Virus record (IMG/VR): IMGVR_UViG_3300036820_000008
Span: 1-64,000 of that record
Strand: one strand, 5' to 3'
Length of the DNA: 64,000 bases
DNA from: a virus
The position numbers were made by a program, and so were the translations under genes. Shown piece after piece: positions 6,397 through 57,867 of the stretch. Position 1 is the first letter of the stretch. Every line of letters begins with the position of its first letter. The notes under the pieces are model-generated. The model was not told where the DNA came from. It made no database searches and saw only the letters and a list, made by a program, of their open reading frames with translations.

Positions 6397-6592
6397 TCTG
6401 TGTCCATTCTAAGAAGGAACGCGCTGACTCGTTACCGGGGCTGATGCCACTGCAGCGTGTCTTATCGGGAGTGACGCTACGCCTATCGTCGATAGTGCAG
6501 TATATCGTTTCGTTATACCGTTACCTAATCGTTACGATACGGCCGGGTACCGGCCGCCGGTCGCGCTCCGGGGAGCCCTGGAAAACCCTGTG

Positions 6593-6610
6593 GAGCTCGC
6601 ACGTACGGAG
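6593..6610 (+). repeat. Dispersed 18-bp motif GAGCTCGCACGTACGGAG
   Basis: Identical copy at 50204-50221; a 16-bp copy at 20647-20662; variants at 43451, 46192 and 46253 (reverse strand). Confidence 0.7.
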
Positions 6611-7661
6611 AGCGCGGACGGAACGGGTAAAACGGGTAGGGCGATAGTTACCGATCGGTATTTCGGAGCTCCCGGCTTCGCGTTACCGCTAGGTGACCGT
6701 CACTTACCATCGGCGATCAGGGAATTTGCTACAATCATGTCATTCGGATCTTCTCCGCGAACCTGCGCTAGCGTCCACCTGCCCTGAATCTCCGAAGACG
6801 TGACATCTTTGCATCGGCAGCGCCACAAGATCACAGTAAAGTCTGTGCTGGCCGATGCCATCACGAACACCTTGCGGCTATCGACGCCGATCGCCTCGTA
6901 ATCATGCTCATGCTTACGTCTGAACGTCATATATTGTCCCAGGGTGTCTCATGTTCGTGTGTGCCATTGAGTCGCAGCTCGTGTAGCTGATCGTGGAAAT
7001 GCCTTAGGGCCGCCATATGATCCGGAGTCTCGTACTTGACAAACCCTCCGCCAAAACTGTCGCGGTGACGTCTATTCATATGGTGAATAAAATCATCGTC
7101 GTCCATGGCATTGGCATCAACAACTATACGAATTTTACGAGGCGTCTCTCCACCCGTCTCCTGGTGCGCAGAAGTTGCACTCTTCACTACGTATGCCTGC
7201 TTCAACATGCTCCTTTGTGTGTTTAGCGTACATTGCCGCTTCATAGCGCTGTTGGAACCAGTAATCGTCATCCACTGGACATCAGCGTCTTCTTCATGAG
7301 AGCCCAGAACTCGTCGGCGTCGCAGTCTATGCATCGCTCGTCAACGTACCACTGGTTTGTTGCTGATTCGTGATAGAGTTCTGCGGCGTCCCTGACCCTT
7401 GCGACGAGTCGATCTGCCTCTTTTTCGTCCATGTAAGCGTCTCCTGATCGAATTCTTCGCCGGGGAATAGGTCATGGCATGACGTGTAATGGTAGTTGTA
7501 CCTCCCCATTGGCTCATAAAGCTCCCATGTGTTGTCGTATTTGTGGAACACACCGTGTACGTGATCTGACGTAACAAAACCAAGGTTGTATCCTCCGCCG
7601 CTCCATGCTCTGATCACGTCTAGCCCGGTGATACGGGCGATCTTCCGCGTGTTACGCGGGT

Positions 7662-8000
7662 TTAGCCTGGACGTACCCACTTGTTCCTCTCAGCCTGCAT
7701 TATAAACTCGATCATCTTGTCGACACGCCCTCGCTCGTGGAGCATATCCGATCTCACCAGGTGCATGTCGGGGGCACCCTCGTAGAAACGGACAAGAGCA
7801 GAGGTTAGAGCCTGCCCCTCCTCGCCCACAAGATAAAACGTTGGCCCTTCTATGATACCGGGGTCCGTGATCTCCTTCCAGCTTCTCATGTCACCCTCTA
7901 TCCTGAGAAGCTGCCTGTTGTGATTCTCGAATTTCTGCGAGACATAGACGGCGATTCCGTCCACCATCATGCTGTCTGTTATGTGTACCTGGACCGGCAT
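7662..8000 (-). CDS. Hypothetical protein
   Basis: RBS, and tight packing in a run of small leftward genes (6700-8790). Confidence 0.55.
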   Translation of the reverse strand: MPVQVHITDSMMVDGIAVYVSQKFENHNRQLLRIEGDMRSWKEITDPGIIEGPTFYLVGEEGQALTSALVRFYEGAPDMHLVRSDMLHERGRVDKMIEFIMQAERNKWVRPG

Positions 8001-8793
8001 CTTTACGGATGCCTCCTTCTCAGTTTGGCATTTGGGAATATACGGGCACTCTGTCTAGCTCGAGCTGCCCCTTCCAAGTCACCGGCGGCCTCGCGGATAC
8101 GGGCTATGTGGTACCATATTGACTTGGTATCGTATCGGTCACCCCTGAACGGGAATCCGTTCTTGAACACAGGAACACCCTGATACGTCCAGTGATCTAT
8201 CAATACGGCTTCTCCTCTGGCCATCCTAGGCGCTCGCGTATTATGTCAGCTAGAGCTTTCGACACTTCTCTTTGCACATCTTCTCTACTGCTTCCGTCCC
8301 ACTGACGGAAGCCTATCTTCTCTCCGTTCAGATACACCTCCATTCCTGTGTACGAGTCATCCACATCGGACTCAACTTCTACGATAATTGCTTTGTTGTC
8401 GCAATAAGACATTACACCCTCCTTATCGCCTTTCTGCCGCGAACGAATTCCTCAGCGAATGCGATTGGATCCATGCCGCCGCACTCGCAGTCTACCGCCA
8501 TCTGCGCAGCGGTATCGGCCGGAACGTTATCTGCGACCATGATGTCGTAGGCTTTGCCTACAGCTTCGCTGACTTTCAGTTCGTGGGCTATACCGTCAGC
8601 CGTAACGGCGAACCCTATGCGCACCTCCATAACCTTGGCGACCAAGGCACTATAGCACCGCGTCTCTCGGCGCGGCGAAGCCATAGGTACGACACAGGAT
8701 CATAATGCGCCCACCACTCCTTGAATTCACGCATCTTTCGCGCCTCATATTGGAATGGTGCCATTGCTGCCCTGAATCTATCTATGTCGAACA

Positions 8794-11820: not shown

Positions 11821-12755
11821 GTCCATGGTTTTAGGTCCTTTTCTTCTATGGGGTACTTGAGGCGTTCTGCCTTCGGCAGCGTAACGTTACACAGACTGGC
11901 TATGTACGCGGTGTTCTCTATTGCCTGCCATGCGTCGGTGCGGCCGAGTCCTGTCTTCATCAGACGAGCTGCGAGCTCTCGGTCTGTCGCTGGCAGCGTC
12001 AGTGGTACGTCGTAGTTCCACTTACGCATAGCGTCATCAACGCTGTCCCCTCCCCGTCGAGCCGTGTGGAGAATGGCCTGCATCTCGGCGTCCTCCATCC
12101 TTGGGTAGTGAACATCATGCGTTACAACTAGAGGTATGTCGAACTCACGGCTTAGCTGCACATATGACTTGTTCATCATACAGCTTCGCTCTAGCTCATA
12201 GAATGGCTGTATCTCTAGATAATATTTCTCCCCAAAGATGTTACTGAACGGCTCGATGACGGCCGACGCCGCCTCAAAGTCAGGAGTGTCGTTATGCTCT
12301 GGCGTGCCTTTTCCTCCAAGCATTGCACAAGCCAGCCTGCTCCCAGAGCATCCAGATAGGACAATGAGACCGTCACTGTTATCACGTAGCGAGGATCCGC
12401 TGACCGTTGGGTGATAGTAATAGTCTCGCCATGACTGAGTGACGATTCGATTGAGATTTCGGTACCCTCCGGTGTCCATGGCGAGGATGGTGAGGTGGTG
12501 TTTGAACTGCGTCCTAGTATCCGGCTCCACAGACCCACAATATGCCTCCAATCCAAAGATCGGCTTGATGCCAGCTTTGATCGCTGCCTTCTCAAGTTGG
12601 AAATGTGAGCTTACATTGCCATGCTCCGTAGCCGCAATTATCTTGTACCCGAGTTCAGCTGCACGCTGTACATGCTTGGTCGGGGTGGCGAATCCATCCC
12701 CGAATGAAAACGTTGTGTGATGGTGCATATTGCAAAACATCGGGGACTTGCTCAA
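11817..12755 (-). CDS. dnaE: PHP domain of DNA polymerase III alpha, as a stand-alone gene
   Basis: HHHTTFSFGDG, TEHG, FGLEAY, HHLTILA...GYRNL, LSGC, YLEIQ, THDVHY. Confidence 0.92.
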   Translation of the reverse strand: MSKSPMFCNMHHHTTFSFGDGFATPTKHVQRAAELGYKIIAATEHGNVSSHFQLEKAAIKAGIKPIFGLEAYCGSVEPDTRTQFKHHLTILAMDTGGYRNLNRIVTQSWRDYYYHPTVSGSSLRDNSDGLIVLSGCSGSRLACAMLGGKGTPEHNDTPDFEAASAVIEPFSNIFGEKYYLEIQPFYELERSCMMNKSYVQLSREFDIPLVVTHDVHYPRMEDAEMQAILHTARRGGDSVDDAMRKWNYDVPLTLPATDRELAARLMKTGLGRTDAWQAIENTAYIASLCNVTLPKAERLKYPIEEKDLKPWT

Positions 12756-13039
12756 TGCTTCTCCTGTACGTCATACTTCTTTCTGGCCATTACGTGACCG
12801 GTGCCCCGACAGGTATAGCATTCAACGCGATGTACGCTAACCATGCCAATATGGCTGTGGATAGTAACGATGCCGTCTACGCATCTTTTCTCTGGGCACT
12901 TAACCATTCCGTAGTTGGGGTCTGGAGCGGTCACTAGTGTCCACCTTGACCGGCTGAGCCTACGGGTAGCGACCGTAATCGCGGCTACCGCTACCCCTAC
13001 GACAGTCGCTACCGCGAGGATCGCGTATACGTAACCCAT
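12752..13039 (-). CDS. Membrane-anchored zinc-finger (DnaJ-type CxxCxGxG) protein
   Basis: TM segment MGYVYAILAVATVVGVAVAAI; CPEKRC and CYTCRGTG. Confidence 0.5.
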   Translation of the reverse strand: MGYVYAILAVATVVGVAVAAITVATRRLSRSRWTLVTAPDPNYGMVKCPEKRCVDGIVTIHSHIGMVSVHRVECYTCRGTGHVMARKKYDVQEKH

Positions 13040-13041
13040 TC

Positions 13042-13572
13042 TTACTCTTCGGACGTGAGATTGTCTAGATTCGGCGTCTCCCAGTCGCCAAATCCCTCTT
13101 TCTCGGAGCGCAGATAGAACCCGATGAAGTTGATCAGGTCGATAGCGGAGTCGTCGTGCTTCTTCCCCTTGATCCAGGCGCGCTCCCACAAACGCTCGAA
13201 CTTCTTCCTGACGTCCGACAGTGCGCCGAGTCGTCCGGACTTTTTCCAGGTACCTCCGTTCGGGTCGTACCCGCGCTGGCACATGATCGCCAGGCAAGGG
13301 AGGAAGACGTAGGTTAGCTGGTCTATGGCGTCCGGGGTCGGTACGAGTCCGCAATCGTCCATGAATTTCACGGAGGCTTCCATGGCTACCCTGATCTCTG
13401 CACCTGTCACCTGAGTAGATACCATCCTTTTGGACTGCTTCTCCCCTGGTTGTGTTAGATTGTCCTCACCATACCGCTGGCCACCAAGGACATCTGCTGC
13501 ATGCCGTACCGTGCTGTAAGCCCCGGTACCGTACCCTTGGTGCCCCATCTGACGTTGGTCTTGCTCAGACAT
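13042..13572 (-). CDS. Nmad1/DUF1599-like alpha-helical nucleotide-modification-associated protein
   Basis: Y...W...G..G....KKFERL...DSAIDLINF pattern. Confidence 0.6.
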   Translation of the reverse strand: MSEQDQRQMGHQGYGTGAYSTVRHAADVLGGQRYGEDNLTQPGEKQSKRMVSTQVTGAEIRVAMEASVKFMDDCGLVPTPDAIDQLTYVFLPCLAIMCQRGYDPNGGTWKKSGRLGALSDVRKKFERLWERAWIKGKKHDDSAIDLINFIGFYLRSEKEGFGDWETPNLDNLTSEE

Positions 13573-14200
13573 GGACCTTGGTTCCCTTCACAAGCTTAGT
13601 TACGAGTACGGAGTTGCGCTCGGTGAATGCCATGATCATGTTGAACTCTATCTCGAGAGACCACTGGGTATGGCCCTCGACGGCTTTGTGGTCGTAGTGG
13701 CGTGTACTAAAGATACTGCGCCATGTCTCGGTGCCGAACTGGCTGACATGCGTCAGGTCCGAGTGCCACAGCTCAGAATCATAGTGCGGCACTATATTGA
13801 CAAACCAGGCGTCGATGGCCAGGACACGCTGTATCTCCGCGAGGAGCGGGATAACGTTCTTGATGTGGTCTAGCGTGTGGTAACTGGCGATGCCATCGAT
13901 GCTGCCGTCTTCGAATGGCAGCGGCATCGTCTCGGCATCCCATTCCGGAAAGTCTAGGTTCACCCAGTCACGGATGAACTTCTTGCCGGCACCCAGCTGG
14001 ACATACCTTCCTTCTGGCGCACGGTTTGTGTCGCCGAATTCCATCGTCTTGGCCATAGCGATCGCGACGTGATCTTCTAGGCCACCTGGGTGCGGAAAGT
14101 GATACACTACATCTCCCATCGCGAGCAGGCGCGTCATAGCGCCGGGGTACAGGGAACCGCTTACATTGAAACTGAAGTCTGACACCAGGCCCAGTCTCAT
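13565..14200 (-). CDS. Class I SAM-dependent methyltransferase-like protein
   Basis: QLGAG...NLD...LPFEDGSIDGI...HTLDH...EIQRVL; the start may be the TTG near 14297. Confidence 0.75.
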   Translation of the reverse strand: MRLGLVSDFSFNVSGSLYPGAMTRLLAMGDVVYHFPHPGGLEDHVAIAMAKTMEFGDTNRAPEGRYVQLGAGKKFIRDWVNLDFPEWDAETMPLPFEDGSIDGIASYHTLDHIKNVIPLLAEIQRVLAIDAWFVNIVPHYDSELWHSDLTHVSQFGTETWRSIFSTRHYDHKAVEGHTQWSLEIEFNMIMAFTERNSVLVTKLVKGTKVHV

Positions 14201-14298
14201 GTCACTCGGCTGCCGCGTGTGGTGCCGTTCTGCATGTTCGTCTGCCCCGGCCGGATCTGGGCCGCACTGTGGGCAGACATATTCTTTGTCGGGCAATG

Positions 14299-14949
14299 CT
14301 ATCCGCCGATCTCGTTGGCACGCTTCATGGTCTGCAACCATGCAATGGCATTGCGCGGGTCGCTCTTTAGTCTGTCCGCATAATGCAGAAGTGCGTGAAG
14401 CAGGCGTCCCTGGCGGAGAGCATCGTCGACGGCTACGTGCGGAACGATATCGTCCAGCTTGACGTTGAACAGCTTGTACAGATCTCCCTCCTCCGGCCTC
14501 TCGTAGTACCCGGACACGGCGAGCAGCCCGTTCGCGTAGCTGCGGATGTCCATGCATGCGAACCCGAGTGGGTTCTTGCCGTAGTAGTTATGCATGTACC
14601 AGTTAATGAAGGTGAAGTCGAAGCCAGCGGGCCACGCTACCGCTACTAGCTTACCGTACGCCGCGAGGTCGATAAGCCATACAGCAAACTGCTCCATTGC
14701 CCTGCTGGCCTCGATCTGGTTCTCATTGACGATACGCCAAGCCTCCGGCTGAGTGCCCCACCAGTCCATGGTGTCGGTGTCCTCGAAGGAACCATCGATC
14801 GGAATGATGTTGCGAGAGAACGACATTCCCCTGCTCACCACAAGATCGTCGGCATTGAATGCTACGGCACCGACAGACAGCATGCTGTTGAGGCCAGGAG
14901 ACGGGCCGTTGGTCTCGATGTCTAGCGAAATGTAAACTTCCTGCCTCAT
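14299..14949 (-). CDS. DEDDh 3'-5' exonuclease
   Basis: SLDIETNGP, AGFDF, MDIRS, HVAVDDA. Confidence 0.85.
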   Translation of the reverse strand: MRQEVYISLDIETNGPSPGLNSMLSVGAVAFNADDLVVSRGMSFSRNIIPIDGSFEDTDTMDWWGTQPEAWRIVNENQIEASRAMEQFAVWLIDLAAYGKLVAVAWPAGFDFTFINWYMHNYYGKNPLGFACMDIRSYANGLLAVSGYYERPEEGDLYKLFNVKLDDIVPHVAVDDALRQGRLLHALLHYADRLKSDPRNAIAWLQTMKRANEIGG

Positions 14950-16121
14950 GCTTTCCGCGTCCTTATCTCTTCGATACGGATGACTGACACCTTCGGTCCG
15001 CCTGCTCCGGCGCTATACACATCAGGCTGCATCACAGCGCTCAGCTTCTCCTCAGCTCTTCTTACTGCATCAGCAAATGTTCCCGGGCCATCCAGCTCGA
15101 TGTACACCCTAGCCTCGAGAACAAAGTGATTGATGCGACCGCCAGTTGGCGGTTTGGCCTGCGAAAAGCTATGTTCTTCCATTCCTGTTATCCTCAGGCC
15201 ACAAGGCCATGTAGCGTTCGGTAGGGTTTGCGATCAGCTCGGCTAGCTTTGCCTCGACGGCACGGCGGCCGTACCTATTCAGGAGATGCCGGAGTTCCTT
15301 GGTCATCGTGTGCTGGTTCTGTGTCTTTGAAGCTGGCGCGAACAATCTCGTCGATGGCATCGTCACTCACCTCGTAGCCGGTACCGCTCTGATTGATGCT
15401 GACATCGTTAGGACCCCAGGACTTCAGGTCTGGTTCATCAGCGGGATTATCCCTTACCCACTGTTCCTTGAGGCGCAGATCTTCGGCGGCCATATCCGAC
15501 GTGTAGTAGACTATTGGCTCTTTCTTGGCCTCGGGCTCGGCCGTAGGCACGCCGATTATCTGGATGCCTTCCAGGGATGTGAAGACATCAAGAGCCTCCT
15601 GGGACGTGAACATCTCGACGTACATAATCGGCGGTCCATCCCACGGACAGTCTATGACCACCCTCCTGATGTTGTTCATCTGATCTTTGGTGAATACACC
15701 CCCTTTCACAAGAGCATTCGCGAACGCCCATTGATTCATTTTGGCCATCATGCCCTCCTGAGCATACTTGAAAGGGCGTCCATTCGCCTGGGCGTCCAGC
15801 ATCTGAACCTGAACTTGCTAAGCAGTTCTTCTGTCTCGTCATCGCACAGCATAACGTACGACAGAAGAAGTAGCCATTCTACGTCCACCCAGTTTATTTC
15901 GGAATGGTGAGATCCGCATCCACTGTTTGGCATGCTGGTTCCGAAGCATCCTACCCTGACAAGGGGATACGAGAACGCGCCGACCATTATATCGCAATTC
16001 TCGTGGTCGAGAATCCTATCGTCGCCAGAGCTCCATGCCCTGATGGCGGTCTCGATGACCATGTCAGATCCGATCGTCACCGCCGGATTGTGCGACATGC
16101 AGATAAGTCGGTATTTGCTGC

Positions 16122-16586
16122 TCATCCTGATCGTCCGGCCTTTCTGGCTGCTTCGTGCCTCTCAACATACCGAAGGCCGAGGTGCGTGCGCCAGTCGACA
16201 CCACCGCTTCCCTCCGGATAGAATCCCCATTCGCCACGGTCGGGGCCGGTGACGACCAGGGTCCAGAGAGGATGCTTGATCTTAGTGATTATGTGCGCTG
16301 CTTCTAGCGGCATGCCGTTAACAGAGAAGCGGCAGCGATTCCTGACGACCATCCTTCTTCTGTTATATTTGTCCGGCCACACCATCTCTGTGTACGCGCC
16401 ACACAGGACAATTGATGTGAAGAACCACGGGTGATCGTGAGGGTCTGCCTCGTGATCCGGGCGGTGAATGTGATGCAGAAATACCGAGAAGAACGGCGTC
16501 TCTATGAGACGGAGACGATCAAGATACGGATCACCCTCGACCGTTCCTATGTCTATGCCTGTCAGGAATCCCCACCTGTTACTCAA
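16122..16586 (-). CDS. Cupin (cysteine-dioxygenase-like) phage protein
   Basis: LHHIHRPD...PHDHPW...GAYTE...H.I...WTLV...WGF. Confidence 0.75.
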   Translation of the reverse strand: MSNRWGFLTGIDIGTVEGDPYLDRLRLIETPFFSVFLHHIHRPDHEADPHDHPWFFTSIVLCGAYTEMVWPDKYNRRRMVVRNRCRFSVNGMPLEAAHIITKIKHPLWTLVVTGPDRGEWGFYPEGSGGVDWRTHLGLRYVERHEAARKAGRSG

Positions 16587-16945
16587 CGGTACCCCTCAGG
16601 AATTCGAGAACGCATCTTGTCCATCTGCCGATCGATGACTTTCTGGGTTCCCTCCCGGTCTTTTGTGAAATGTTGAATGCACAGAAGACCCGTCATCACA
16701 ATGTCGCCGATCTCCATGAGCATTTCGGATCTGTCGACGGCACTTGAAGGTTTGTTCTGCTCTTTTCTTGGGTTCTGTCCTGTCGAGGATATCAGGAGGG
16801 AGATAGCCTCACCTAGCTCCTCGGCCACCTTGGATACCCTGGCCCAATCTTGGGCCAATGGCTGATCCTTGTACTTCTGGGACACTTCGCCATCGAGCCA
16901 TTTGTCTGCAGCCTCGATGACCTCCCAGTCGATGCTGTCGCTCAC
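16583..16945 (-). CDS. MazG-like nucleotide pyrophosphohydrolase
   Basis: KVAEELGE...EIGDIV (EExxE...ExxD). Confidence 0.75.
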   Translation of the reverse strand: MSDSIDWEVIEAADKWLDGEVSQKYKDQPLAQDWARVSKVAEELGEAISLLISSTGQNPRKEQNKPSSAVDRSEMLMEIGDIVMTGLLCIQHFTKDREGTQKVIDRQMDKMRSRIPEGYR

Positions 16946-17886
16946 ATAGCATCAGGCGCTAGGCGCGCGGCTCCCTCTCGGAGGGCCTCCTGCGGGTCGA
17001 TGTCCACCCATACCTTCGGACCTTCGCCCTTACGATGGTGATCCATAACGCGATCGCGGATGGCGCACCAGCGATCGGTCTCTGCCATGAACTCGCACTT
17101 CCCAGTGCGGTAACAGATTGGGAGGAAGATACTGGTGATCAGCTTCTGCTGCCACTTCTCAGACTCAGGGCCATAATTCTCTATTGCCCCGAGGAATCCA
17201 TACCAGACCATCTTCCATTCGTACTGTGCCTGGGAACACAGTCGCATTCCGGCGTGCTCCGCGAGGTTGCGGAGATTCGTCTTGTAGTGTATGCGCGTCG
17301 TTATGTTCGTGGGTAGCAGGCCACGGGCATCCTCCGCTGGTACCCCTCCGTCCACCATGGCATTGTAAGCCCACGAGTTCTCCTTGACGGCCTTGTCCCA
17401 TACCAGGCGCATCGGGTGGTCTTCCTTGAGGTCCCTGATCGAAGGAGGGTACGCCACCTCTAGCATCGCGTTGTCCTTCACGGCAAAGCGCTGTGACTCC
17501 TGCACGTAAACAGCCGTACGCTGCCGAACGAGTTGATGGGTAAAGGCACGGGTCACGCCCTCGATGAGGAAGTGAAGGTCGATGAACTCCAGCGGTGCCT
17601 GCAAAGCCGTCCTGGTCATGTCAGAGAACCACTTGCGAGCAGTCTCTTCTTCGATCTCGTCTGGGCTCTTTATGATGCGACCCGCATACAGTTCAGCTGC
17701 GGCGGCCATCACTCTCAGAGGATTCGCCGTCATGCTTACGAGATGCACTTGCGGAAGAACCATTTCGCCGCGGTCTGCCGCTTCGTTGTGCTGTGCCTGG
17801 TACATCGCGACGTCCGCGTACCTGACCACGTCTGTGCCGGGGTTGCGGCTGACGTTAACCTTCGATTTCGCGGGCTCGTGATTCAT
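16942..17886 (-). CDS. thyX: ThyX-like flavin-dependent thymidylate synthase (variant)
   Basis: PLEF, RAFTHQLVRQR-x7-SQR, EDARGLLP, NLR, RLC..AQ.E. Confidence 0.85.
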   Translation of the reverse strand: MNHEPAKSKVNVSRNPGTDVVRYADVAMYQAQHNEAADRGEMVLPQVHLVSMTANPLRVMAAAAELYAGRIIKSPDEIEEETARKWFSDMTRTALQAPLEFIDLHFLIEGVTRAFTHQLVRQRTAVYVQESQRFAVKDNAMLEVAYPPSIRDLKEDHPMRLVWDKAVKENSWAYNAMVDGGVPAEDARGLLPTNITTRIHYKTNLRNLAEHAGMRLCSQAQYEWKMVWYGFLGAIENYGPESEKWQQKLITSIFLPICYRTGKCEFMAETDRWCAIRDRVMDHHRKGEGPKVWVDIDPQEALREGAARLAPDAM

Positions 17887-18235
17887 CGATCCTCTTCTTC
17901 CTGTCTTCTTCGATCTCGTTGTCGGTTGATGGGATGATGTGGACGTACATATGCGGTATCATCCGGGCGGCCTCGCTGCCGACCGTCGTGGTTATGGTGC
18001 AAACAGGAGCAAGTACGGCTGCACGCATCGCGACCAACCTGAACACCTGCGCTGTTATGACTGGATTCATCAGGGCATTCCTGATGTGTATGCGAGGGGC
18101 GACTATTATGTGCCCCGGCTTGATCGCATTGTCAGGGACGAACAGGACCCCGTGCTCGTGGAGCTCGATATACTTCCGGTTAGCGATCAACTGGCATATC
18201 GAGCAGAACTGCTCCGTCGAATCCTGCGATGGCAT
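17855..18235 (-). CDS. HIT-family protein (variant motif)
   Basis: FCSIC, PGHIIVAP, HMYVHIIP. Confidence 0.75.
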   Translation of the reverse strand: MPSQDSTEQFCSICQLIANRKYIELHEHGVLFVPDNAIKPGHIIVAPRIHIRNALMNPVITAQVFRLVAMRAAVLAPVCTITTTVGSEAARMIPHMYVHIIPSTDNEIEEDRKKRIDESRAREIEG

Positions 18236-19007
18236 TTATCTTCTTCCTCTCGTCTTTGTGCATGATGCTATCTACGGCATTGTATGTGTCCCAGTAAGCT
18301 GTGTCAACCCACGTCTCGTTCTTCCACTTGCCGAATCGTCCGGTGCGGAGGACGTGAGGGAAACAGTCGCAATCCGTACTGATAGGCTTGCGGATAAGAT
18401 GAGCGCCTCTGGGGGCCTTGCCGACAGGCCATTCCGTCGACCCCACGCCGAATACAAGCGAACTACGAACCCAGTCCGGCTTCTGTCCGGCATTGAATAT
18501 CAGGGTGTTCTCAGGCTGCTCAGGGTATGATACGGCTGTCGTAACCTCGACAGCCTTGTACGCGAATTTGTGCGCTCGCATACAAAGAGACTCCGCATTT
18601 GCGGTACTAACGACTAGATCTGACCTCTCATGCATGGAGGCTAGCTCCGTAGCCCTCACACGACGGTCACAGACCAGATGCTGGTACATGTTCCATAGCT
18701 TGTCGTATGTCTCGCCATGCCTCCATGCGAAGTACTGCGGGACGAGCATGTCGCCGTTGATGCCGATGTTGATGTCGCCGTAAAGCTTGTATCGGTAGTC
18801 GAGGATACTACCACCTATCACCACCTGGTGAATCGTTCCGTCCGGGTGTCCGGTATTGATGCCCGGAATCGGACGCTGCATAAGTAGCGGCCCGCGTTGA
18901 GGAGTTTTTGCCTTTGGCGCATAGATCACGACATCAGCGCCTAGCCCTATGGCCGCATGCGCTGCAGCTAGGCCAGCAGGTCCGCATCCGATCACATCGA
19001 CGATCAC
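18180..19007 (-). CDS. FAD-dependent oxidoreductase
   Basis: N-terminal GCGPAG Rossmann motif; C-terminal GRFGKW reminiscent of UDP-galactopyranose-mutase-like flavoproteins. Confidence 0.7.
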   Translation of the reverse strand: MIVDVIGCGPAGLAAAHAAIGLGADVVIYAPKAKTPQRGPLLMQRPIPGINTGHPDGTIHQVVIGGSILDYRYKLYGDINIGINGDMLVPQYFAWRHGETYDKLWNMYQHLVCDRRVRATELASMHERSDLVVSTANAESLCMRAHKFAYKAVEVTTAVSYPEQPENTLIFNAGQKPDWVRSSLVFGVGSTEWPVGKAPRGAHLIRKPISTDCDCFPHVLRTGRFGKWKNETWVDTAYWDTYNAVDSIMHKDERKKINAIAGFDGAVLLDMPVDR

Positions 19008-25189: not shown

Positions 25190-25195
25190 GTGTCT

Positions 25196-37842: not shown

Positions 37843-37876
37843 TGGAGGACTCCTACTCTACGCGGGCACTAAGCTA

Positions 37877-42277: not shown

Positions 42278-42889
42278 AAGTGGGCAGGACCTCCGGGCTC
42301 GGGCTTAGCTAGCGGTAACCTTACCGCTCCGATCGGGGGTCCGCCCGAGAAACCCTAATACGCAGAAAGGGAGCAATTGTCTCCGTCGTATTCACCGCCG
42401 TTCTGCGAGATTCATGGTACTGAAATGTACTACGACAATGTGCGTGACGAGATCCGATGCCCCGCTGACCGGCTATGTAACGGACTGTCACTTCCCGAGA
42501 TCCTCATCATGCTGGAGCACACAATCAGCTACGTGACGCTTCCGACACAGACCCTCGCGGGGAGCCTGTGATTTCCATCGTAGAGGATGTCGTCCCGATA
42601 GTGTTCGCCGTCATATTCCTCCTTCTCATCCTTGCCAATTACGGTGACTCTGCAAAGCGTAGGAAGTGGGAAGACAGCCACCCCGGTATGAGCTGGGAGC
42701 AGTGGAAAGAATTCCAGAAAGGCAATCGCAAGTGAATATATACGAACTAGAGAACAGGATAGTAAGGCTGGCAAGGTTCCTGTTCGGGAACAGCATCACA
42801 CCTGCCTGCGGAGGCCTCCTCGTGGGCGTGTTCATGTGTACACTGGCGTCCCTTCTTACATGTCTTACTGTGATGATAGCGGTAACGTC

Positions 42890-45984: not shown

Positions 45985-46830
45985 TTCTTCTTGGCCTGGA
46001 GTACGAGAACTTCTCGTCCCCAATGTATATTTGGCGTCTTATCTTGAACCATGAGTGGCATCGGTCGCACATTGCCGACAACATGAGACCTGTTGATACA
46101 TGTCCCCTTACTCTGCATGTTGTGTGTTTGTGCAGGAATGCCCTTACCCTGATTATCCACATGATAATTATGCCATTTCTCTGTCGCCCTGGAGCTCGCC
46201 CGTAACGAGCGCTAGCCCTAGCGTAGCCGGTACGCGGTAGACCGGCTAGCGGCTCCGTACGGGCGATCTCCACCGGCTCGCCGGTACCGGCTACCGCTCC
46301 TTACTGCGGCTCGCGGGTGGGCGGGTTCGCCCTACGCTCCCGGATCCGATCTCTGTAGTATGCGGCCTCTCTGTGCACCAGACCGGTCAGTTCCTCTACG
46401 ACACGGCCGTTGACGAACACAGCCCAGCTCTGGCTGTCATCGCCATTGTACTTGCGAATCGTGATCTTGTCAGCTTTCGCCATTGCCATTCTCATTCCGA
46501 TTGCAAGAGTCGCCTGTTTTGGCGATGGCATGTACCGGACACTTCTCCCGATAGTTCGGGCATGCCATGAAGGCGCAGTGCGTGCCTTCCTCGATAGCTC
46601 CGACCGGACCGATCTTGCTGTGGTCACATCCTCTGTTCACATTTCCTCCTATATGGTCAGCAGGATCTCGTTCGGTTCGCAGAGTCCGCTCTCCGTGTTT
46701 ACGGTCCCGCTCCATATGTTGATGCAGTCGCATCCCTGCAGCACAACAACCTTGCCTCTGTCCAGCTTACGCAGAGCCTCGATCAGGTCTGCCACTGTGT
46801 TCTTCTCTTCATCTTCCGGCATGCATGCTC

Positions 46831-48054
46831 CTAGTCGAAGAATGTATCGTACTCGTCAGGCTCGGGCAGCTCTTCCTCTGCCTCATCGAACAGTTCCTCC
46901 TGCGCCCGGACTGTCTCCATCACGTCGCATACATGCCACCCCTTGTGGGTGCTACGATCCGGGAACGTCAGGACGCTGCTCTTGCCGAGACCCATTGCCA
47001 TCAGTTTCGCGATCTTGTAATCGGTCAGCTTCGGGTACATCTTCTCGTCCACGGTACGCAGGTGATCGAGCAGCGTCCGGCTCGTGAGATAGACCGGCTC
47101 AGGCTCGGCCGGTAGCGACCTCAGATATGCCCCGGCGTCCCGTACGATTTTCTGCTCGGGGAGCAGGACAGCCTTGTTGGCCGAGTCGAGCGCCAGAGCC
47201 TCGAATGCCCGCTTCCACCTCGCTGGCCACTCACCGCCCGCTGCCTTGGCGATGGACCACATTGGCCCCCATATCTGGGCCTTGCGGGATGTGAGCCTCG
47301 GGTGGATGCCGCGCAGCTGCTTGTTGTACTTCTTCAGGTCCTCGATGTTCGACCGGACCCAGGCATGCAGGCAGTCCTGAAGCTCCCGAGCCTCAGCCTC
47401 AACATCCTCGTCCAGGATGTCCTCGAGCACTACGCCCTCTGGCTTGGGGCGCATCTCCCCGATAACGCACCGGGACCTGAGATCATCTGGGGCTGCCTTG
47501 CGGAGTCCCGCGAAGAAGGCTACTCCGTAGCAGCTGATGTCCTGGGCCGTTCCGTTGCTCAGGCTCAGCGTTCCCTTCACTGAGTATCCGTCGCATGCTA
47601 TCTGGTATATCGGGTTGGTCTGGCCTCGCAGCCCGTTCTCGCCGAACACCTTGCTGATCTCATGGAAGCACAGGGTCACCGGACCCTCGATGTACTTGGC
47701 CCTGAGAGCAAACGAGGTCGGATTGGATGACCAGCCATTCAGACTTAGGTCCTCCGCGAAGTAAAGGACCGTTGACTTGCCGCACTCCTTGAATGGACTT
47801 GTGATCAGAAAGCGCGGTACCGTCCGGCTCGCGTCTAGCGCGTGGCTGACTGCTGCGCCCATGATCACCGCATCCTTCAGCTCTCGGGATGCGTAGATCG
47901 TTCTGTCGGCCAGTTCGCTGATCCTGTCCAGCGGCTGCGGCACATTCTTCTTTACTCGCTCTTTCCGTGGCCCTGGGGTCATCGGCTCTCTTGTCGCCGC
48001 GTACTCAGACGCGACCCCGACCGCCATAGCGGCTAGCCTAACTGCTGATGCCAT
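46831..48054 (-). CDS. DUF3631-like P-loop protein
   Basis: PRFLITSP..ECGKST, L.SR, W.P...IA..AGG.WP. Confidence 0.7.
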   Translation of the reverse strand: MASAVRLAAMAVGVASEYAATREPMTPGPRKERVKKNVPQPLDRISELADRTIYASRELKDAVIMGAAVSHALDASRTVPRFLITSPFKECGKSTVLYFAEDLSLNGWSSNPTSFALRAKYIEGPVTLCFHEISKVFGENGLRGQTNPIYQIACDGYSVKGTLSLSNGTAQDISCYGVAFFAGLRKAAPDDLRSRCVIGEMRPKPEGVVLEDILDEDVEAEARELQDCLHAWVRSNIEDLKKYNKQLRGIHPRLTSRKAQIWGPMWSIAKAAGGEWPARWKRAFEALALDSANKAVLLPEQKIVRDAGAYLRSLPAEPEPVYLTSRTLLDHLRTVDEKMYPKLTDYKIAKLMAMGLGKSSVLTFPDRSTHKGWHVCDVMETVRAQEELFDEAEEELPEPDEYDTFFD

Positions 48055-48095
48055 GATCTGTACCTTACCCCTCCGACGGGTCGTACCTTACCCCT

Positions 48096-48125
48096 AGTCT
48101 ACCGTATGCACCCGGTAGCTCGCTA
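48096..48125 (-). promoter_or_regulatory. Phage promoter TAGCGA-N18-TAGACT
   Basis: Recurrent consensus; GTGCATACGG before the -10 is shared with the 49164 promoter. Confidence 0.6.
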
Positions 48126-49127
48126 CCGTAGCGCGTCCGGGGTCTTGCTGCCGACCCCGGTGCTGAGGTCTGCGGTGTTAGCGTGCCGGACTCCAACGCC
48201 ATACGCCTGCTCGTTGAACGAGAATGTTGGTGCCTTCCGCCTGCGAGCAGGCTTGCTGTTCTTGGGGTCTTCCTCTGGCACCTCCAGGAACATCTCGGGG
48301 TTGTCATCGCGGAATAGCGCGTCCAGATCATCGACCCTCGAGGCTAGGAGGATCTCGGTTCCTGCCTGTCGGTTGCTCTCGACCTGGCGGAGACGCTGCG
48401 TAAGCCGGGACGTGTACCCATACGCGGCGCTCTTGCGATAGGTGGCCGTTCCCCCGGCAGAGATCTTGGTCGGCTGCTCGCCCCGCTCCTTCGTCGCCTG
48501 GTAGTAAGCGCGCTTGTAGATGCCGCCGACGTGGAACTTGGTCTTGTCGTTCCCCTCGCTGTCCCGCCACATCTCGGTGCCCTCTCGCAGGCCAACCTTC
48601 GACCACCCGTACATGCGAGCGATCTCCAGCCAGTTGTACCCTGCGTTGTGGAGGCGATAGCAGTTCTCGCTCAGTGAGCTGTTCCTGTCGATGCGCGGGA
48701 TCAGCACACCGAGCATGTGCAGGCGGATGGTTGTGTACAGCAGCTCGAAGTAGCGCGCGTCCGACTCGAAGCCGTACACCTTTGCCACCCACACGCCATC
48801 CCTCCAAGCGGTGTACAGGAGAGCGCGGCACCGGCAGTGCCTGGCCACCATGTCGCACAGCGACCCGAAGTAGCCGATAATGTCAGAGTCGCCGCCGATC
48901 TCGACCGTTATGATGATTGGCCTCGTGCGCTGCTCGGCTGGCCGGGAGGCCTCGGCCTGAGTCTCGTCGACTGCGTGCTTGAGCATCAGCGCGTCGGCCA
49001 TCTCGCGATACGATGTGGCCACCTTGGGGTCGGTGTTCGGGTCCTCGGCTACTGCGATCAGCTTGCGGACCTTGCTGAGGACACTGTCGAGTGACATCTC
49101 TCGCCTGTTGTTATCCTGATCGGACAT
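48123..49127 (-). CDS. DUF2786-domain protein
   Basis: KVRKLIAVAED...A..LM.KH. Confidence 0.75.
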   Translation of the reverse strand: MSDQDNNRREMSLDSVLSKVRKLIAVAEDPNTDPKVATSYREMADALMLKHAVDETQAEASRPAEQRTRPIIITVEIGGDSDIIGYFGSLCDMVARHCRCRALLYTAWRDGVWVAKVYGFESDARYFELLYTTIRLHMLGVLIPRIDRNSSLSENCYRLHNAGYNWLEIARMYGWSKVGLREGTEMWRDSEGNDKTKFHVGGIYKRAYYQATKERGEQPTKISAGGTATYRKSAAYGYTSRLTQRLRQVESNRQAGTEILLASRVDDLDALFRDDNPEMFLEVPEEDPKNSKPARRRKAPTFSFNEQAYGVGVRHANTADLSTGVGSKTPDALR

Positions 49128-49192: not shown

Positions 49193-50133
49193 GGGGTCGG
49201 CGGGGTCCGGGTGGACGCGCTATAGGGTCGGCGTCCACCCGGTAGTCTCGGTATTCGCGGTAGTCGTCAGGATTCGGCTGCCTTTGTCTTATCGGGGCAC
49301 CGGCTGCACGGGGCAGACGGCATTCCAGACAGGCGGCCGCATCCTTCGCATCTTTCTGGCTCCTGTGTCCAGGGCCAGATGTCCTCCTTGAGGCCTCTGT
49401 AGAGGAGGCGGGCCATCTCGGTCTCGGTTGTGCGATAGCCTCCTATGCTTGCCTGCCGGAATAGCTCAGCGCAGGCCTCTTGCTCGCTTCCGGTACGTGC
49501 ATGGCTCTGCAGGATGGACAGGAGCTTGTAAGCCATGCTGTGGTGCTCAGCGTTGGCCAGCGGTGCGCTGTTCGGCATTTTGCGGAGGGGAATCCCCTGC
49601 CTCATGTTTCTGGCAAGCTGCTCATGTCCGCCTACCTCGCGGAAGCGACGCCTGTCCTCCTCGCTCATGGCCGCCACTGCCTCCTTGCCCTGTCATATGC
49701 CTGCGGGGTTACTGGAGGCCAGACCGAAATCGCTGGAGGATCTCCCTCCGTGACATACGTCTCTCCGTGCTGGGAGCAGCTGGCCGGGTCGCCAGTCTGC
49801 ATGGGGCGTGGTGAGTCAAGCTCGTGCCCGCAGCTCATGGGGTAGACGTAGTTGTCCTCGGCCTGGCCGGGGCCGGGTCGAGCTGTGGTATCTCCCTCGT
49901 CCTCTTCTTTGTTATTGTAGAAGATCTGGGCGACTCCTCTTCCGAGGAACTCCTCCATCTCAACCATCGTCAGCGGGTTGGTGTACATCGGGAGGCGCTG
50001 GATGACCCTGCGCCAGTTACCGTCGTTGTCCCAGCGCTCGATCTCAGTGCCGTCCCGCAGGACGATCCTGAATGCGCCCTCTGTTAGTCTATTGTCCATC
50101 GTCTTTGCCTCTCGGTTTGCTCGGGTAGCTATT

Positions 50134-50163: not shown

Positions 50164-50394
50164 GGGCTTAGCGGTAGCGCGTAGCACTCCCGTAAAGCGG
50201 GCAGAGCTCGCACGTACGGAGATTAGAATCGGGGTTAGGTAGCCCGGTAGGGTCGGGCTTCCGTAGGGCCTTAGCTCGGAGCTACGGGCCGTTTATGGGA
50301 GTGCTGAATTTTGCCCCCTAAAGCCGGGAGAGCCCGGCACCTGACATGGGTGCCGGGCTTCTCGGTGTGGACGGGTGGACGGGCGGTGTGCGGG

Positions 50395-51399
50395 TCACTC
50401 GTCCGTGGTGTCCTGTGTGGTGTCTTCGCTCGCGGTGTCCTGTGTGGCGTCGGTGGGGGTGTCGTCGGTTGCCTCCGCGTCCGTGGGGGCCTCCGTGAGG
50501 CCTGCGGCAGTTTCGGACTCGGTGAGCCAGTCACTTCTCTGCGGCCGGGGGAGGTGCTTCAGCCACTCGTCACGGTCGGCCGGGAAGTGGTGGATCCACT
50601 GGGCCGCGCACTGCCGGGCCTCAGCGAGCCCGCCGATGCCGGCCAGGATGCCGTTGGGGTCGGAGCCGGTAGGGTCGGCCGGGTTATCGAGGCTGTGGAT
50701 TGCCGCACCGATGGCCTCGACGAGAACGAGTGCGAGGTCACGCTTGGCCTGCCGGGATGCGGACTTGCCAGTGCCTTTGCCCGATCCTGTGCCCTTGGCC
50801 GTGGCCCAGACTCCACCGAGTTTGGCGACGCAGGTGTGGATGTGGACCGCGCCGGTGTATCCGTTCTCGGCCAGCCAGGCGTCGCTGGGGTCGGGGTCGG
50901 TCATCTCCGTGCTGGGGTCCGCTGGGTCGGCCTTGGGGTGCACGGGCTGGGGAGGGGTGCCGCTGGGGTCGTCCTCCTGGGTCCAGGACTCGCGGATCTG
51001 GTCATCCCACAGCTGGCAGATGAGGTCGTGCGGATCCTCCACCAGTGCGGAGCCGGGACGCTCGTAGTCGGACTTCCGCGTGTCACGCTTGAGTATGGGG
51101 CACTTGGGGGTTTCCTCGTCGCCGGTGACGTGAACCTGGAAGTCTCCGTCCTTGAGAACGAAGCTGAGCAGGTCGCGCGGGTCCTCCACTTCGTGGGCCG
51201 GGATCTTGGCCGGGGAGAGCTTGCCGTTCTTGCGGGAGACCCGGATCTTCAGATCCTTGGCCGTGAGCCCGCACTCCGGGCAGCCAGGAAGGCTCGAGGT
51301 TGCTGCTGTGTTCGTCCTTGGGTCCGTGGAGTCACCTTCTGTCTGGGGGATGTAGACCCAGGCCTGGTTCTCACCGGCGCACTCAATGATGGTTGACAT
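50395..51399 (-). CDS. Hypothetical protein with C-terminal QWxHHFPADR domain
   Basis: 334 aa; strong codon bias; paralogous to 57868-58302. Confidence 0.75.
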   Translation of the reverse strand: MSTIIECAGENQAWVYIPQTEGDSTDPRTNTAATSSLPGCPECGLTAKDLKIRVSRKNGKLSPAKIPAHEVEDPRDLLSFVLKDGDFQVHVTGDEETPKCPILKRDTRKSDYERPGSALVEDPHDLICQLWDDQIRESWTQEDDPSGTPPQPVHPKADPADPSTEMTDPDPSDAWLAENGYTGAVHIHTCVAKLGGVWATAKGTGSGKGTGKSASRQAKRDLALVLVEAIGAAIHSLDNPADPTGSDPNGILAGIGGLAEARQCAAQWIHHFPADRDEWLKHLPRPQRSDWLTESETAAGLTEAPTDAEATDDTPTDATQDTASEDTTQDTTDE

Positions 51400-51706: not shown

Positions 51707-51716
51707 CTGGGGTATC

Positions 51717-52310
51717 CTACTGCTCGTACTGGATGTAGTCACGCTTGTGATCGCTCCATCCATCGCGGAGTGTGATCTCGTCCGGCGGGATACAGGTGTG
51801 GCAGAACTTTGTGTGTCGTATGTAGCCGTGTTCCTTTAGCCACTTCTTCGTGGGGACGAGCCAGTATCCTGGGTAGTCTGGATCTGTATGGTCTATGCGC
51901 CATCCCCTGGGTCCTGGCTCGCTCCTGTTTATCTCGCTCCTGTTTCTTTTGTTGCCATTTCTGCTCGCCCTTCTCTCCTCCTCGGCCCATGCGAGCTTGA
52001 TGCTTTCCTGCCAGACCTGGACTATTGCGTCCTTGCGCGTGAATGCCCAGAGGAGATGAATGAATGGCTCTGCCTCTGTTCTCTTGGGCCGACCTGCTCG
52101 GGCATAGTCTCGTTTGATGCCAGGACATCCGGGTAGGTGGATCTTGTATGTGTTCTCGTCGTAGTCTGTGTAGATCATCTGGAGCTCGGGGTATGGGGCT
52201 ATTCGCTGGGCTGGTAGCTCTCCGTTCATTATTGCTATCTCACGGAGGGTGGGGATCATGTTGGCGGTTGATCCGACCTTTTGCTTGAATTCTCTTGATC
52301 CTCTAGGCAT
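51717..52310 (-). CDS. Hypothetical protein (leaderless)
   Basis: TATAAT lies 7 nt before the ATG. Confidence 0.6.
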   Translation of the reverse strand: MPRGSREFKQKVGSTANMIPTLREIAIMNGELPAQRIAPYPELQMIYTDYDENTYKIHLPGCPGIKRDYARAGRPKRTEAEPFIHLLWAFTRKDAIVQVWQESIKLAWAEEERRASRNGNKRNRSEINRSEPGPRGWRIDHTDPDYPGYWLVPTKKWLKEHGYIRHTKFCHTCIPPDEITLRDGWSDHKRDYIQYEQ

Positions 52311-53045
52311 AGGCGGTATTATACCTCGTCCCGTCCGGGGTCTCGTGCAACGTCTTGTGCATGTTGCGTCCTGCGTTCCCCTCCCTGCCTTCCCCGCTCT
52401 CGCGCGCGTAGGCGCGCGTATATCCCTACCCTAGGGAATTCTACGACTTCTAAACCGTTACAGTAACTTCTCACCTCCTGCAGGAGCGGGTGCTGTGTGG
52501 GGATTGGATGGGGATTGAGCGGGGGTGGAGAGGGGGCTAAATTTCCGTCCGGGCTTGTGGGAGTGTTGATGGGTCCCTTATCATATATTGAGAATATATA
52601 GTAGGTACGTAAGAAGCTATTGAAGCTAGCGGGTATAGGGTATAGTAACTCACCCGTGCAGTCGTTTTCTGGCACGCAACAGCCGGAAAATTTCCGAAGG
52701 GGTATTCAGGGGTATTCAGGGGGTATTTCAGTGGTATTTACTGTTATTTCACGTGCTTCGAGGCAGTATAAGCCGTCTTTCGGCTGTTTCGAGGTCGTTT
52801 CCAGCCATAATTAACCGTGGAAACGACCCCTGCACACATGAAAAGTGCATGATTTCAGCGATTTTCGGACGGCTGCACCGCCCACATCGCCGCAGCGTAC
52901 GGGTAGAAATCGTAGGTAGTTTTCGGCCTTTTCGGGAGAAAGCTGTAATCAGTGCCGCAAACCATGTGTGCGCATCTAAATTCGCCCATTTTCAGCACTA
53001 AATCGCCATCTCGAGGGCATAATCTGTCTCAGCAGCAGGCGAGAT

Positions 53046-56190: not shown

Positions 56191-56249
56191 GGTAGCTCCC
56201 CCGGTCGTCCCGCAGGGAAGTCGGGACGGCCAGAGCAGCTCGCCGCTAG
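56191..56249 (-). repeat. Conserved intergenic stem-loop element; second copy at 57251-57307
   Basis: Shared flanks GGTAGCTCCCCCG...GGCCAGRGCAGCTCGCMGCTAG around inner hairpins that differ but still pair. Confidence 0.7.
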
Positions 56250-56603
56250 AGATCTCCGCAGGGTCCGTCCTGAAGGCCAGGGGTCTCGTCCTCGTCTTCG
56301 TACGGACAGGAGATGTACTGTTCCCAGAGCTCACGCTCTCCGTCGATCTCCATCTCATCGAACATTGAGACGAATGGCATGAAGTCATCGCCGACATCGA
56401 CGAACTGGCCATTGAGCCACATCTTGCCGTCTGGGAAGAAGGTGATGAGCATCACGTCCCTGCCATTCTCAGGGAATCGCAGTGCTAGGTACTGTCCATC
56501 GCCGATCCTGCTCAGGGCAATCTTCTCGGTGATTACCCAGTCGTACTCGGGGGTCGGGAATTCCATCTTGTTGGTTTCCTTTCGGAGCGCCGGTACTGCT
56601 ACT

Positions 56604-56633
56604 AGTCTACCCTACCGGGCAGCCTGCCCGCTA
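56604..56633 (-). promoter_or_regulatory. Phage promoter TAGCGG-N18-TAGACT
   Basis: Recurrent consensus. Confidence 0.6.
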
Positions 56634-57867
56634 CCCCTAGCCGACGGCAATATCGGCGTTGGGGTATCAGGCTAGTCAACCGCTAGCTTGGCGGCTCGAT
56701 CTCATCGGTGATCGTGAAGCGCAGCTCCCCGATGAGGAACTCCTCTTCAGCCTCGACCGTGAATGGCCCGAACTGCTTCTTCTCGTATCCGTACACGGGA
56801 AGGGCAGATAGGGCCGTGAACATGTCCTGGCCCTCAGGGCCGCTGTAATTGTTGACCAGGAACATGGCCGTCTGCGTGGACGTCAGGTTGTCGAACTTGG
56901 GCATCAGCCGAACTCCCCGTCGTTGATCGTCGAGCGGGCTCGGATCAGCCCGTTGTAGGAGTCATGCCCGTACTGTTCGGCAGTGCACTTCTGGGCGATG
57001 ACGTAGTAGCCGAAGTTCTGCGCCTGCTCGGCGGTGAACAGCGTCCACTCGGTGCCGACCACCGTGAATGGCTCCGGCTTGATGGGGTGTTTCTCTCGCC
57101 AGCGGTCGATGTCGGCGAGATAGCTGTCGAACTCTTCAGGGGTCATGTCCCCGATGTTCGGCATCAGAAGATCACGATGATCAGGATGATGATCACGGCG
57201 ACCCAGAACAGCTTCTTCATGAGGCTTCCTCTCCTCTGGCTACCTACCTTGGTAGCTCCCCCGAGCCATCCGTATAGGCACGGATGGCCAGGGCAGCTCG
57301 CAGCTAGGAACTACAGGAACCTGATCGGGATGTAATTGTCGCATGCCTGACAGTATGCTGTCGGATTGTCACCGGCGAACACGCCGGGGTGCTCGCATTC
57401 GCTACTGGCTCTGGGTGCTGGGCTGTTGACGTGGAGGGCGTCGTACGCGACCCTGAGAGCCGTCATGGCATCCTGCAGCCGGTCGAACGGAAGAGACACC
57501 ACGCTCTCGTTGAAGCGCACATACCAGCGCTTGGATTTGGGGTTGCTGATGATGTCCCACTTGGCGTCCGCCTTCAGCACGTAGTGCCGGCTGGCGAACC
57601 TGCGGGTCATGTCGTACGGCAGGTGACTGTCCAGGCGAAAGTACCTGCCGTACGGCGGGATTGCTCCGGTCATGGCTCAGTAGCCCCAGCCCATGGCCAG
57701 CATGGCCACGCACAGCATGATGGTCCAGATCGTGCCTACGATGATGCTCTTGGTGCTCATTTGACGTACCCTCTCTCGGAACGGCATCCCAACGGGCTGC
57801 CTCCCCGGCATCCGCGCCTCGGCGTGAGGCGCGGCTACCAGGGGGACGGACCGGCGTGACCTAGCGC

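Follow-up and report, generated by a model that had tools for sequence, protein, structure and literature searches.

Islands devoid of CA and TG in an uncultured phage genome

The first 64 kb of the genome of an uncultured soil phage (IMG/VR record IMGVR_UViG_3300036820_000008, positions 1 to 64,000; hereafter the window) contain short stretches of DNA, here called islands, which are nearly or completely devoid of the dinucleotide step CA/TG and are rich in TA. The ban recurs at a dozen or more sites, mostly predicted promoters, leaders and gene ends. The window belongs to one phage genome of 94,579 bp (G000; GC content 57%), whose ends overlap and which is classed by IMG/VR as having direct terminal repeats, i.e. 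the assembly is circular or carries terminal repeats. Genes were called using a simple codon model of our own. A block of minus-strand genes extends from about 5.6 to 59.8 kb and comprises functions of replication and nucleotide metabolism as well as many small genes, while the plus-strand remainder is taken to consist of structural genes. The DnaE-type polymerase, which shares 48% identity with polymerases of Mycobacterium phages, as well as an Rpf-like transglycosylase, PASTA, DUF3631, DUF2786 and DUF6011 in the predicted proteome point to a host of the actinobacterial type. A search for cultured close relatives yielded none, and relatives in addition to G001 (see below) were recovered from metagenome contigs using an alignment of the primase-helicase (13 sequences).

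Comparison with 100 first-order Markov simulations confirmed that the depletion is real. Twelve runs of at least 60 nucleotides (nt) lack CA and TG, where 0.49 are expected (maximum 3), and the longest run measures 94 nt as compared to a simulated mean of 59 nt. All ten CA/TG-free runs listed in a first-pass annotation of this DNA were recovered with coordinates agreeing within 1 nt, and the near-free runs that it reported at about 12960, 30470, 48060, 49150 and 56580 were also present. Two further runs, at 52387-52461 (75 nt) and 42218-42275 (58 nt), were absent from that list. An alleged island in an "SSB tail" (30149-30208) had to be discarded, as it is part of a trivial low-complexity run of acidic aspartate/glutamate codons (30143-30376, minus strand) that lacks TA and lies outside the phenomenon; the encoded protein has no match to SSB.

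In the pooled non-coding islands of G000 and of its relative G001, the observed/expected ratio is 2.68 for TA, 0.10 for CA, 0.23 for TG and 1.23 for CG, as opposed to genome-wide values of 0.84-0.90 for TA and 1.05-1.11 for CA/TG. Individual islands comprise 70-200 nt with 6-13 TA steps, have a GC content of 0.58-0.73 (genome mean 0.57) and are rich in short palindromes such as GAGCTC, GGTACC, GCTAGC and CTAG. Outside the islands, CA/TG in G000 is at or above expectation. The ban is strand-symmetric and holds in non-coding as well as in coding DNA, pointing to an effect at the level of DNA, not of RNA or translation. Islands occur scattered between 6.5 and 56.7 kb, and an additional one is found at 77 kb. 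They do not reflect a general property of intergenic DNA, which overall is not depleted, nor of gene starts, as only about 10% of the genes possessing an upstream gap carry an island. The islands are therefore discrete elements.

Several other explanations were tried and rejected. Hidden coding is not compatible with the presence of stop codons in all three sense frames of most islands. Structured RNA is not supported either, since most island folding energies fall inside the range of dinucleotide-shuffled controls and Rfam reports merely three tRNAs. The genes of these tRNAs are located at 25116-26289 (minus strand) in a 700-nt stretch without a called protein gene. A family of repeats or mobile elements was likewise dismissed, as a direct-repeat search yielded coding low-complexity families only. 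A 14-mer scan of viral contigs for the island boxes described below produced chance matches only, except in G001.

Promoter-like, leader and boxed islands

The islands are positioned either 0-200 nt upstream of gene starts or right after stop codons. Their assignment to promoters and operon junctions, as put forward in the first-pass annotation, is supported by these positions and by a promoter-like motif, GGTAGCG-N18-19-TAnnnT, in which the downstream element reads TATAGT, TATACT, TACGCT, TACGAT or TAGACT. A TAnnnT element is found at a distance of 18-19 nt at 5 of 35 GGTAGCG sites in G000 and at 5 of 46 sites in G001 (expected: ~0.6 and ~0.7, respectively), and likewise at 5 of 42 and 7 of 40 sites in the relatives G002 and G003. 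In these four genomes, all motif matches but one are on the strand of the early/middle genes and upstream of a gene. The matches in the window are at 30506, 37907, 39990, 48127 and 56635 on the minus strand, all in sense orientation and upstream of genes. The arrangement of an upstream box at fixed spacing from TAnnnT on the sense strand corresponds to that of a two-box promoter, and we propose that the motif represents a newly recognised, clade-specific class of promoter-like elements. The -35-like GGTAGCG box is unlike TTGACA, which suggests that it is read by a phage-specific or alternative sigma factor or by an activator.

Unless stated otherwise, the islands described in the following are on the minus strand. 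Two of them represent the promoter type most clearly. Island 30446-30548, which is 87% identical to positions 48824-48914 of G001, comprises GGTAGCG (30506), a spacer of 18 nt, TATAGT and a leader with the ribosome-binding site AAGGAG ahead of the ATG at 30428. In island 37844-37949, GGTAGCG (37907) is followed after 18 nt by TACGCT and by a leader with AGGAG and a GTG start codon at 37842. In both cases the CA/TG-free run extends from about -70 to +2 with respect to the inferred start site. The short island 48055-48122 lies downstream of GGTAGCG (48127), from which TAGACT is separated by 19 nt, and abuts the start of gene 46831-48054. The same combination, GGTAGCG (56635), 19 nt and TAGACT, is present in the near-free island 56567-56682 upstream of gene 56246-56566. 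Island 52373-52472, one of those missing from the earlier list, is located 63 nt upstream of gene 51717-52310.

Leader islands stop exactly at the start codons at 37842, 42277 and 45156. The last of these belongs to island 45157-45241, which abuts the ATG at 45156 and contains GGTACCCTAGCC-type words. The start at 42277 is part of a divergent control region (42212-42374, no strand assigned) between the gene of the primase-helicase (ATG 42277, minus strand) and a plus-strand operon (TTG at ~42378). Positions 42282-42374 constitute the whole gap between the two divergent genes and provide the leader on both strands, and in G000 the ban also covers the initial 58 nt of the coding sequence of the primase. 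The control region is 94% identical in G001. The operon itself (42378-43450, plus strand) is a short unit within the minus-strand block, divergent from the primase gene, and its last gene (43040-43450) is found beside the primase gene in 5/5 relatives.

The boxed islands are delimited by a 5' GGAGCTCCGA(A/G)ATA box and a 3' CCGTACGTGCGAGCTCC box, which enclose a variable core often containing a GC-rich hairpin. The GGAGCTCC-boxed islands directly follow stop codons, and one of them is located between convergent genes. This latter element (43426-43530, no strand assigned) carries a 9-bp GC-rich hairpin between genes ending at 43450 (plus strand) and 43486 (minus strand) and is likely a bidirectional terminator. 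Another one extends from GTAGCTCCGAGCTA to CCGTACGTGCGAGCTC at 50203-50302, between genes 50395-51399 and 49665-50099. Composite island 6497-6701, with 84% identity to positions 69726-69929 of G001, combines both types: a boxed element from GGAGCTCCGAAATA at 6669 to CCGTACGTGCGAGCTCC at 6595 follows the stop codon of gene 6927-7205, and a -10-like TATACT near 6500 lies upstream of the transglycosylase-like gene 5593-6396. Two more islands are found at gene ends. Island 46183-46305, right after the stop codon of gene 46301-46531, contains a hairpin with 13 of 14 pairs in the closing stem (folding z-score about -2.5), while island 12956-13037, directly after the stop codon of gene 13042-13425, is rich in GGTAGCG/GGTAGGG words.

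Judged by position, the GGAGCTCC-boxed islands are likely terminators. However, a scan for hairpins followed by a T-run, the hallmark of intrinsic terminators, matched no island. The folding z-scores of the islands range from -2.7 to +0.9 and are mostly within the range of shuffled sequences, with boxed islands folding just mildly better than their shuffled controls.

One island is located inside a gene. Positions 20551-20747 encode the C-terminal tail, rich in lysine, proline, alanine and threonine, of a 282-292 amino acid (aa) protein whose gene ends at 20541. This coding island contains a GCTCGCACGTAC box and GGTAGCG words and is situated 92 nt upstream of the next gene; its counterpart in G001 (58037-58236) is likewise CA/TG-free. 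The proteins encoded at 20541-21419 and 29657-30808 (minus strand) both join a long acidic aspartate/glutamate run to a basic region rich in lysine, alanine and proline, reminiscent of histone-like or nucleoid-type tails. At the beginning of the window (66-3932, plus strand), a protein of 1288 aa is encoded that contains numerous blocks of glycine-rich GGX repeats and is probably a tail fibre or collagen-like protein.

Maintenance of the ban among relatives

The relative G001 (88 kb) is syntenic with G000, and its islands occupy the same junctions. Identity between syntenic islands amounts to 77-94%, in comparison to 65-81% nucleotide identity for genes, including those next to the islands. 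Runs of at least 55 nt are in excess in G001 (14 observed versus 1.7 expected), in G002 (11 versus 1.6) and in G005 (12 versus 2.1), the latter being locus L047 on contig IMGVR_UViG_3300036821_000059. No such excess was detectable in G003 (3 versus 1.6) or in a set of distant loci. In 7 relatives, the leader of the primase gene is CA/TG-free together with the initial 55-70 nt of the coding sequence, even though the sequences of these relatives differ.

The syntenic islands differ by 185 substitutions. Random change of this extent would have added ~51 CA/TG steps (minimum 27 in 2000 simulations), while the net difference observed is 6, demonstrating that the ban is maintained by selection. Among the substitutions, C<->G transversions are the most frequent (37%), while transitions account for 28%. 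A predominance of C<->G changes combined with few transitions is expected from a filter against CA/TG and is the opposite of what deamination would leave behind.

The ban can even extend over whole genes. In G005, 1.5 kb (11910-13451) are almost free of CA/TG and contain three open reading frames (ORFs) of 75, 116 and 149 aa with ribosome-binding sites and coding-type GC periodicity; one transmembrane segment is present in one ORF, and two of the ORFs have a common ribosome-binding site, GAAAGGAAGATCGAAA(A)TG. The CA/TG steps left in these ORFs belong to start codons, one TGA and single Cys, Trp, Met, Gln and Leu codons, and the proteins are nearly devoid of His, Gln, Cys, Trp and Met.

In contrast, G003 possesses the same promoter class and ThyX but no islands, and its promoters contain 3-7 CA/TG steps each. 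Hence, the promoter machinery as such does not depend on DNA being CA/TG-free, and the ban must stem from a lineage-specific factor, although the comparison of the island-bearing genomes with G003 amounts to a single phylogenetic contrast. A small class-I methyltransferase, a ParB/Noc-type protein, DUF3631 and several unknowns are present in G000, G001 and G002 and missing from G003. They are the sole candidates for an enzyme that could write a DNA mark, and none is convincing. Taken together, we are highly confident that selection keeps CA/TG out of the islands and that these are conserved elements with the placement of transcription-control DNA.

Possible causes of the ban

Since the ban covers control regions, leaders, first codons and, in relatives, whole genes, it implies that the step is read in infected cells with strong effects on fitness. 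We see close to an even chance that a new agent is responsible, either a new kind of mark of the phage itself, deposited by enzymes unrelated to the pathway of 5-hydroxymethyldeoxyuridine (5-hmdU), or a host factor specific for this dinucleotide step, and that these phages write their most critical DNA without the step. A literature search retrieved no paper describing such CA/TG-free islands in phages.

The first of the two variants builds on the suggestion of the first-pass annotation that a base is modified in CA/TG context. Tentatively, as the leading explanation but one that is less likely than not, we propose that the phage DNA bears a base modification on T in TG context and that control DNA is kept free of the site. 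Such a modification would mark both strands at each CA/TG step, and DNA read by RNA polymerase and regulators would be written without the modifiable site; the writer would be other than the known 5-hmdU pathway. Thymidine hypermodification in TG context, as known for phages F8, 14-1, SH-Ab 15599, M6, ViI and PhiW-14, is the sole documented phage process of this kind, being specific for the TG/CA step and acting on both strands. Pbunavirus F8 and 14-1 carry a hypermodified thymine in a TG motif (PMC12191111). SH-Ab 15599 DNA carries the modification mainly at TG, to a lesser extent at TC and seldom at TT or TA (PMC13458397), and DNA of M6, ViI and PhiW-14 is modified at TG/TC, which the authors credit to a 5-hydroxymethyluracil (5-hmU) DNA kinase (PMC6449724). 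With F8, the phage studied here also has in common a DnaE-type polymerase, ThyX and MazG.

The use of T in the islands fits a mark of the phage's own, as the order of its 3' neighbours (TA 2.96 > TT 1.23 > TC 0.88 > TG 0) is the inverse of the published preference TG > TC > TT/TA (PMC13458397, PMC6449724, PMC12191111). TC in islands is approximately two-fold low even after allowing for the missing TG. In addition, avoidance of six-base palindromes is stronger for those lacking TG/CA than for those containing it in G000 (0.86 versus 0.99) and also in G001 and G005. The same contrast is seen in F8 (0.73 versus 0.96) and M6 (0.35 versus 0.79), but not in G003 (0.85 versus 0.88).

A number of results, however, weigh against an own mark. 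A ThyA-type hydroxymethylase (PF00303) was not found in the six-frame translated genome, and neither the TET/JBP dioxygenase of Rhodococcus phage Tonitrus nor the ThyA-like enzyme of M6 gave a significant tblastn match in six clade genomes. The 5-hmU DNA kinases M6 gp54 and Tonitrus gp7 as well as the aGPT-Pplase2-type transferases M6 gp51 and Tonitrus gp6 also lacked matches in the clade genomes. A partial aGPT-Pplase3 match was rejected, since it reached 13.8-15.8 bits (cut-off 25) in an orphan 133-aa ORF without homologues. A small P-loop kinase was not found: the only full-length proteins with a Walker A motif are an AAA_24 ATPase, the primase-helicase and a 479-aa protein (67194-68633) taken to be the terminase, and a 55-aa ORF also fits the motif. 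ThyX passes the NCBI equivalog cut-off, from which it follows that the phage makes ordinary thymidine monophosphate. The methyltransferase appears to be of the small-molecule type and has neither a DPPY/NPPY nor a PCQ motif, and was therefore rejected as DNA writer. The best sigma-70-like promoter in a scan of 37-53.5 kb, located near 53.1 kb, contains both TG and CA. Moreover, the control regions of phages with proven TG modification are not CA/TG-free. PhiW-14 has 0 CA/TG-free runs of at least 45 nt; F8 has 15 runs versus 9.2 expected, mostly in coding repeats; and M6 has 12 versus 11.3 expected, with two small TA-rich intergenic elements only. Thymidine hypermodification differs from the present case both in this respect and in that none of its pathway enzymes was detected here. 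Tonitrus, an actinophage predicted to modify thymine, was dismissed as a parallel because TA-rich islands are absent from its genome and homologues of its enzymes were not found in the clade.

The original suggestion agrees with the published precedent of TG-context thymine marks and with the inverse T-context order. The candidate enzymes assigned to 13-19 kb, however, include no recognisable DNA-modifying enzyme; they are an ordinary ThyX, MazG, HIT, an exonuclease, the small-molecule-type methyltransferase and a flavoprotein. The labels "Nmad1" and "variant ThyX" could not be reproduced with Pfam, PHROGs or NCBIfam, and "Cupin" survives only as a match to the PHROG "cysteine dioxygenase". 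In the proposed comparison of enzyme cluster and islands, G003 has ThyX without islands, although the methyltransferase part of the cluster is missing from it. The gene run in question (13042-19359) encodes an unknown 127-aa protein, the small class-I methyltransferase, an Rv2179c-like exonuclease, a cupin, MazG, standard ThyX, HIT and the flavoprotein (in a PHROG of unknown function), of which all but the 127-aa protein, ThyX and the flavoprotein are missing from G003. For the 334-aa protein encoded at 50395-51399, no usable atlas match was obtained.

Some observations on the modifying phages are added here. The two M6 elements (3489-3553 and 29629-29707; locus L110) are intergenic, TA-rich and CA/TG-free, have the repeat GGTAAGTAAGTTAAGTAAGTTAAG in common and are located at the two main module junctions. 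Throughout the PhiW-14 genome (L124-L130), CA/TG is strongly over-represented (1.35, 1.32) and TA strongly under-represented (0.42), as if modifiable sites were maximised. In Tonitrus, a ParB-like gene heads the predicted thymine-modification cluster.

In the second variant, an external agent reads CA/TG in infected cells and the phage purges the step from its most vulnerable DNA. Candidates would be a nuclease or nickase of a host defence, a silencer that binds DNA, or a small DNA-binding molecule made by the host community. This explanation, which we consider doubtful, accounts for a strand-symmetric ban that is kept by selection on coding and non-coding DNA alike. It is also consistent with the empty searches for writer genes in the phage, with the lack of islands in proven TG-modifying phages and with G003, which has the same promoters without the ban and, given its differing GC content of 0.64, probably a different host. 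However, we know of no nuclease, silencer or ligand that is specific for the CA/TG step while sparing TA and CG. As CA/TG is at or above expectation in the remaining genome, an external agent would further have to matter only at control DNA. The first-step-transfer region of T5/BF23 and the avoidance of restriction sites provide parallels, as in these cases, too, selection removes a short word from a defined part of the genome. Here, in contrast, a dinucleotide step is affected, and the islands are rich in other palindromes and do not sit at one end of the genome. A leading region of the first-step-transfer type, i.e. one contiguous block at an end, was rejected on account of the scatter of the islands described above.

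Alternatively, selection may strip accidental expression signals from both strands of control regions. TG is part of the start codons ATG, GTG and TTG, of the stop codon TGA, of the -35 box TTGACA and of the TGn extension of -10 boxes, and the abundant TAG/TAA in islands would halt stray ribosomes. In support of this idea, several islands stop exactly at the true start codon, so that the first NTG past the island is the initiator, and positions 42282-42374 serve as leader in both directions. TTGACA contains TG as well as CA, and the scan of 37-53.5 kb revealed no sigma-70-like site inside an island. We nevertheless regard this explanation as unlikely. Islands mark only the above-mentioned tenth of gene starts with an upstream gap; the ban enters the primase coding sequence, a coding tail and the three whole genes of G005, where translation is intended; on the sense strand, avoidance of CA is no less strict than that of TG; and G003 tolerates CA/TG in the same promoter class.

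It is quite improbable that the islands are arrays of protein-binding sites, a variant of the earlier idea that a phage protein selects for DNA shape. In this case, dense S-TA-S words (GGTAGC, CCTAGC, GGTACC, GGTAGG) would be bound by a phage protein, e.g. a ParB-like protein or an activator, and CA/TG would represent the non-cognate forms one transition away. Indeed, these words show a 6- to 13-fold enrichment in islands, 9-12 of which share them, and G000, G001 and G002 encode a ParB/Noc-type DNA-binding protein, whereas none was found in G003. The protein of G000 (34436-35290, minus strand) scores above the NCBIfam parB_part cut-off. On the other hand, over 50% of the island A residues lie outside TA, and yet GA is near expectation (148) and CA almost absent (16), showing that the ban goes beyond S-TA-S words. 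Furthermore, island sequences diverge freely among relatives while the ban holds, periodic spacing of TA is not evident by eye, and whole genes are under the ban in G005.

Finally, local hypermutation akin to fungal repeat-induced point mutation (RIP), also raised in the first-pass annotation, in which a CpA-preferring cytosine deaminase would turn CA/TG to TA without selection, is rejected and scarcely credible: the depleted and enriched dinucleotides are those predicted by CpA>TpA, as the CpA/TpG loss and TpA gain of RIP would have it, and the TA surplus matches ~60% of the missing CA/TG, but C<->T differences between G000 and G001 are lowest before A among the four contexts (YpA 0.103 per site) with no genome-wide excess, and the islands are conserved rather than decayed, are not duplicated sequence, have a GC content at or above the genome mean and lack a transition bias.

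We return to the reading that a new agent, of phage or host origin, recognises the CA/TG step. If this is true, the islands would be the phage counterpart of the promoter islands of marked eukaryotic genomes and would open a new axis of phage-host conflict. The likeness to vertebrate CpG islands, in which promoters also have a dinucleotide content unlike that of the bulk and tied to a dinucleotide-specific mark, is an analogy only. CpG islands keep their target dinucleotide by escaping methylation-driven decay, whereas here the putative target is removed by selection. In case of a phage mark, hypermodified genomes would need unmarked windows for gene control, and islands could serve as a computational predictor of modified phage DNA and of the modification context from metagenomes. 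If a host factor is responsible, a new defence principle would be at work. Either way, the run-length statistic can be applied to any phage genome, and the islands map promoters and gene-end signals of an uncultured phage clade.

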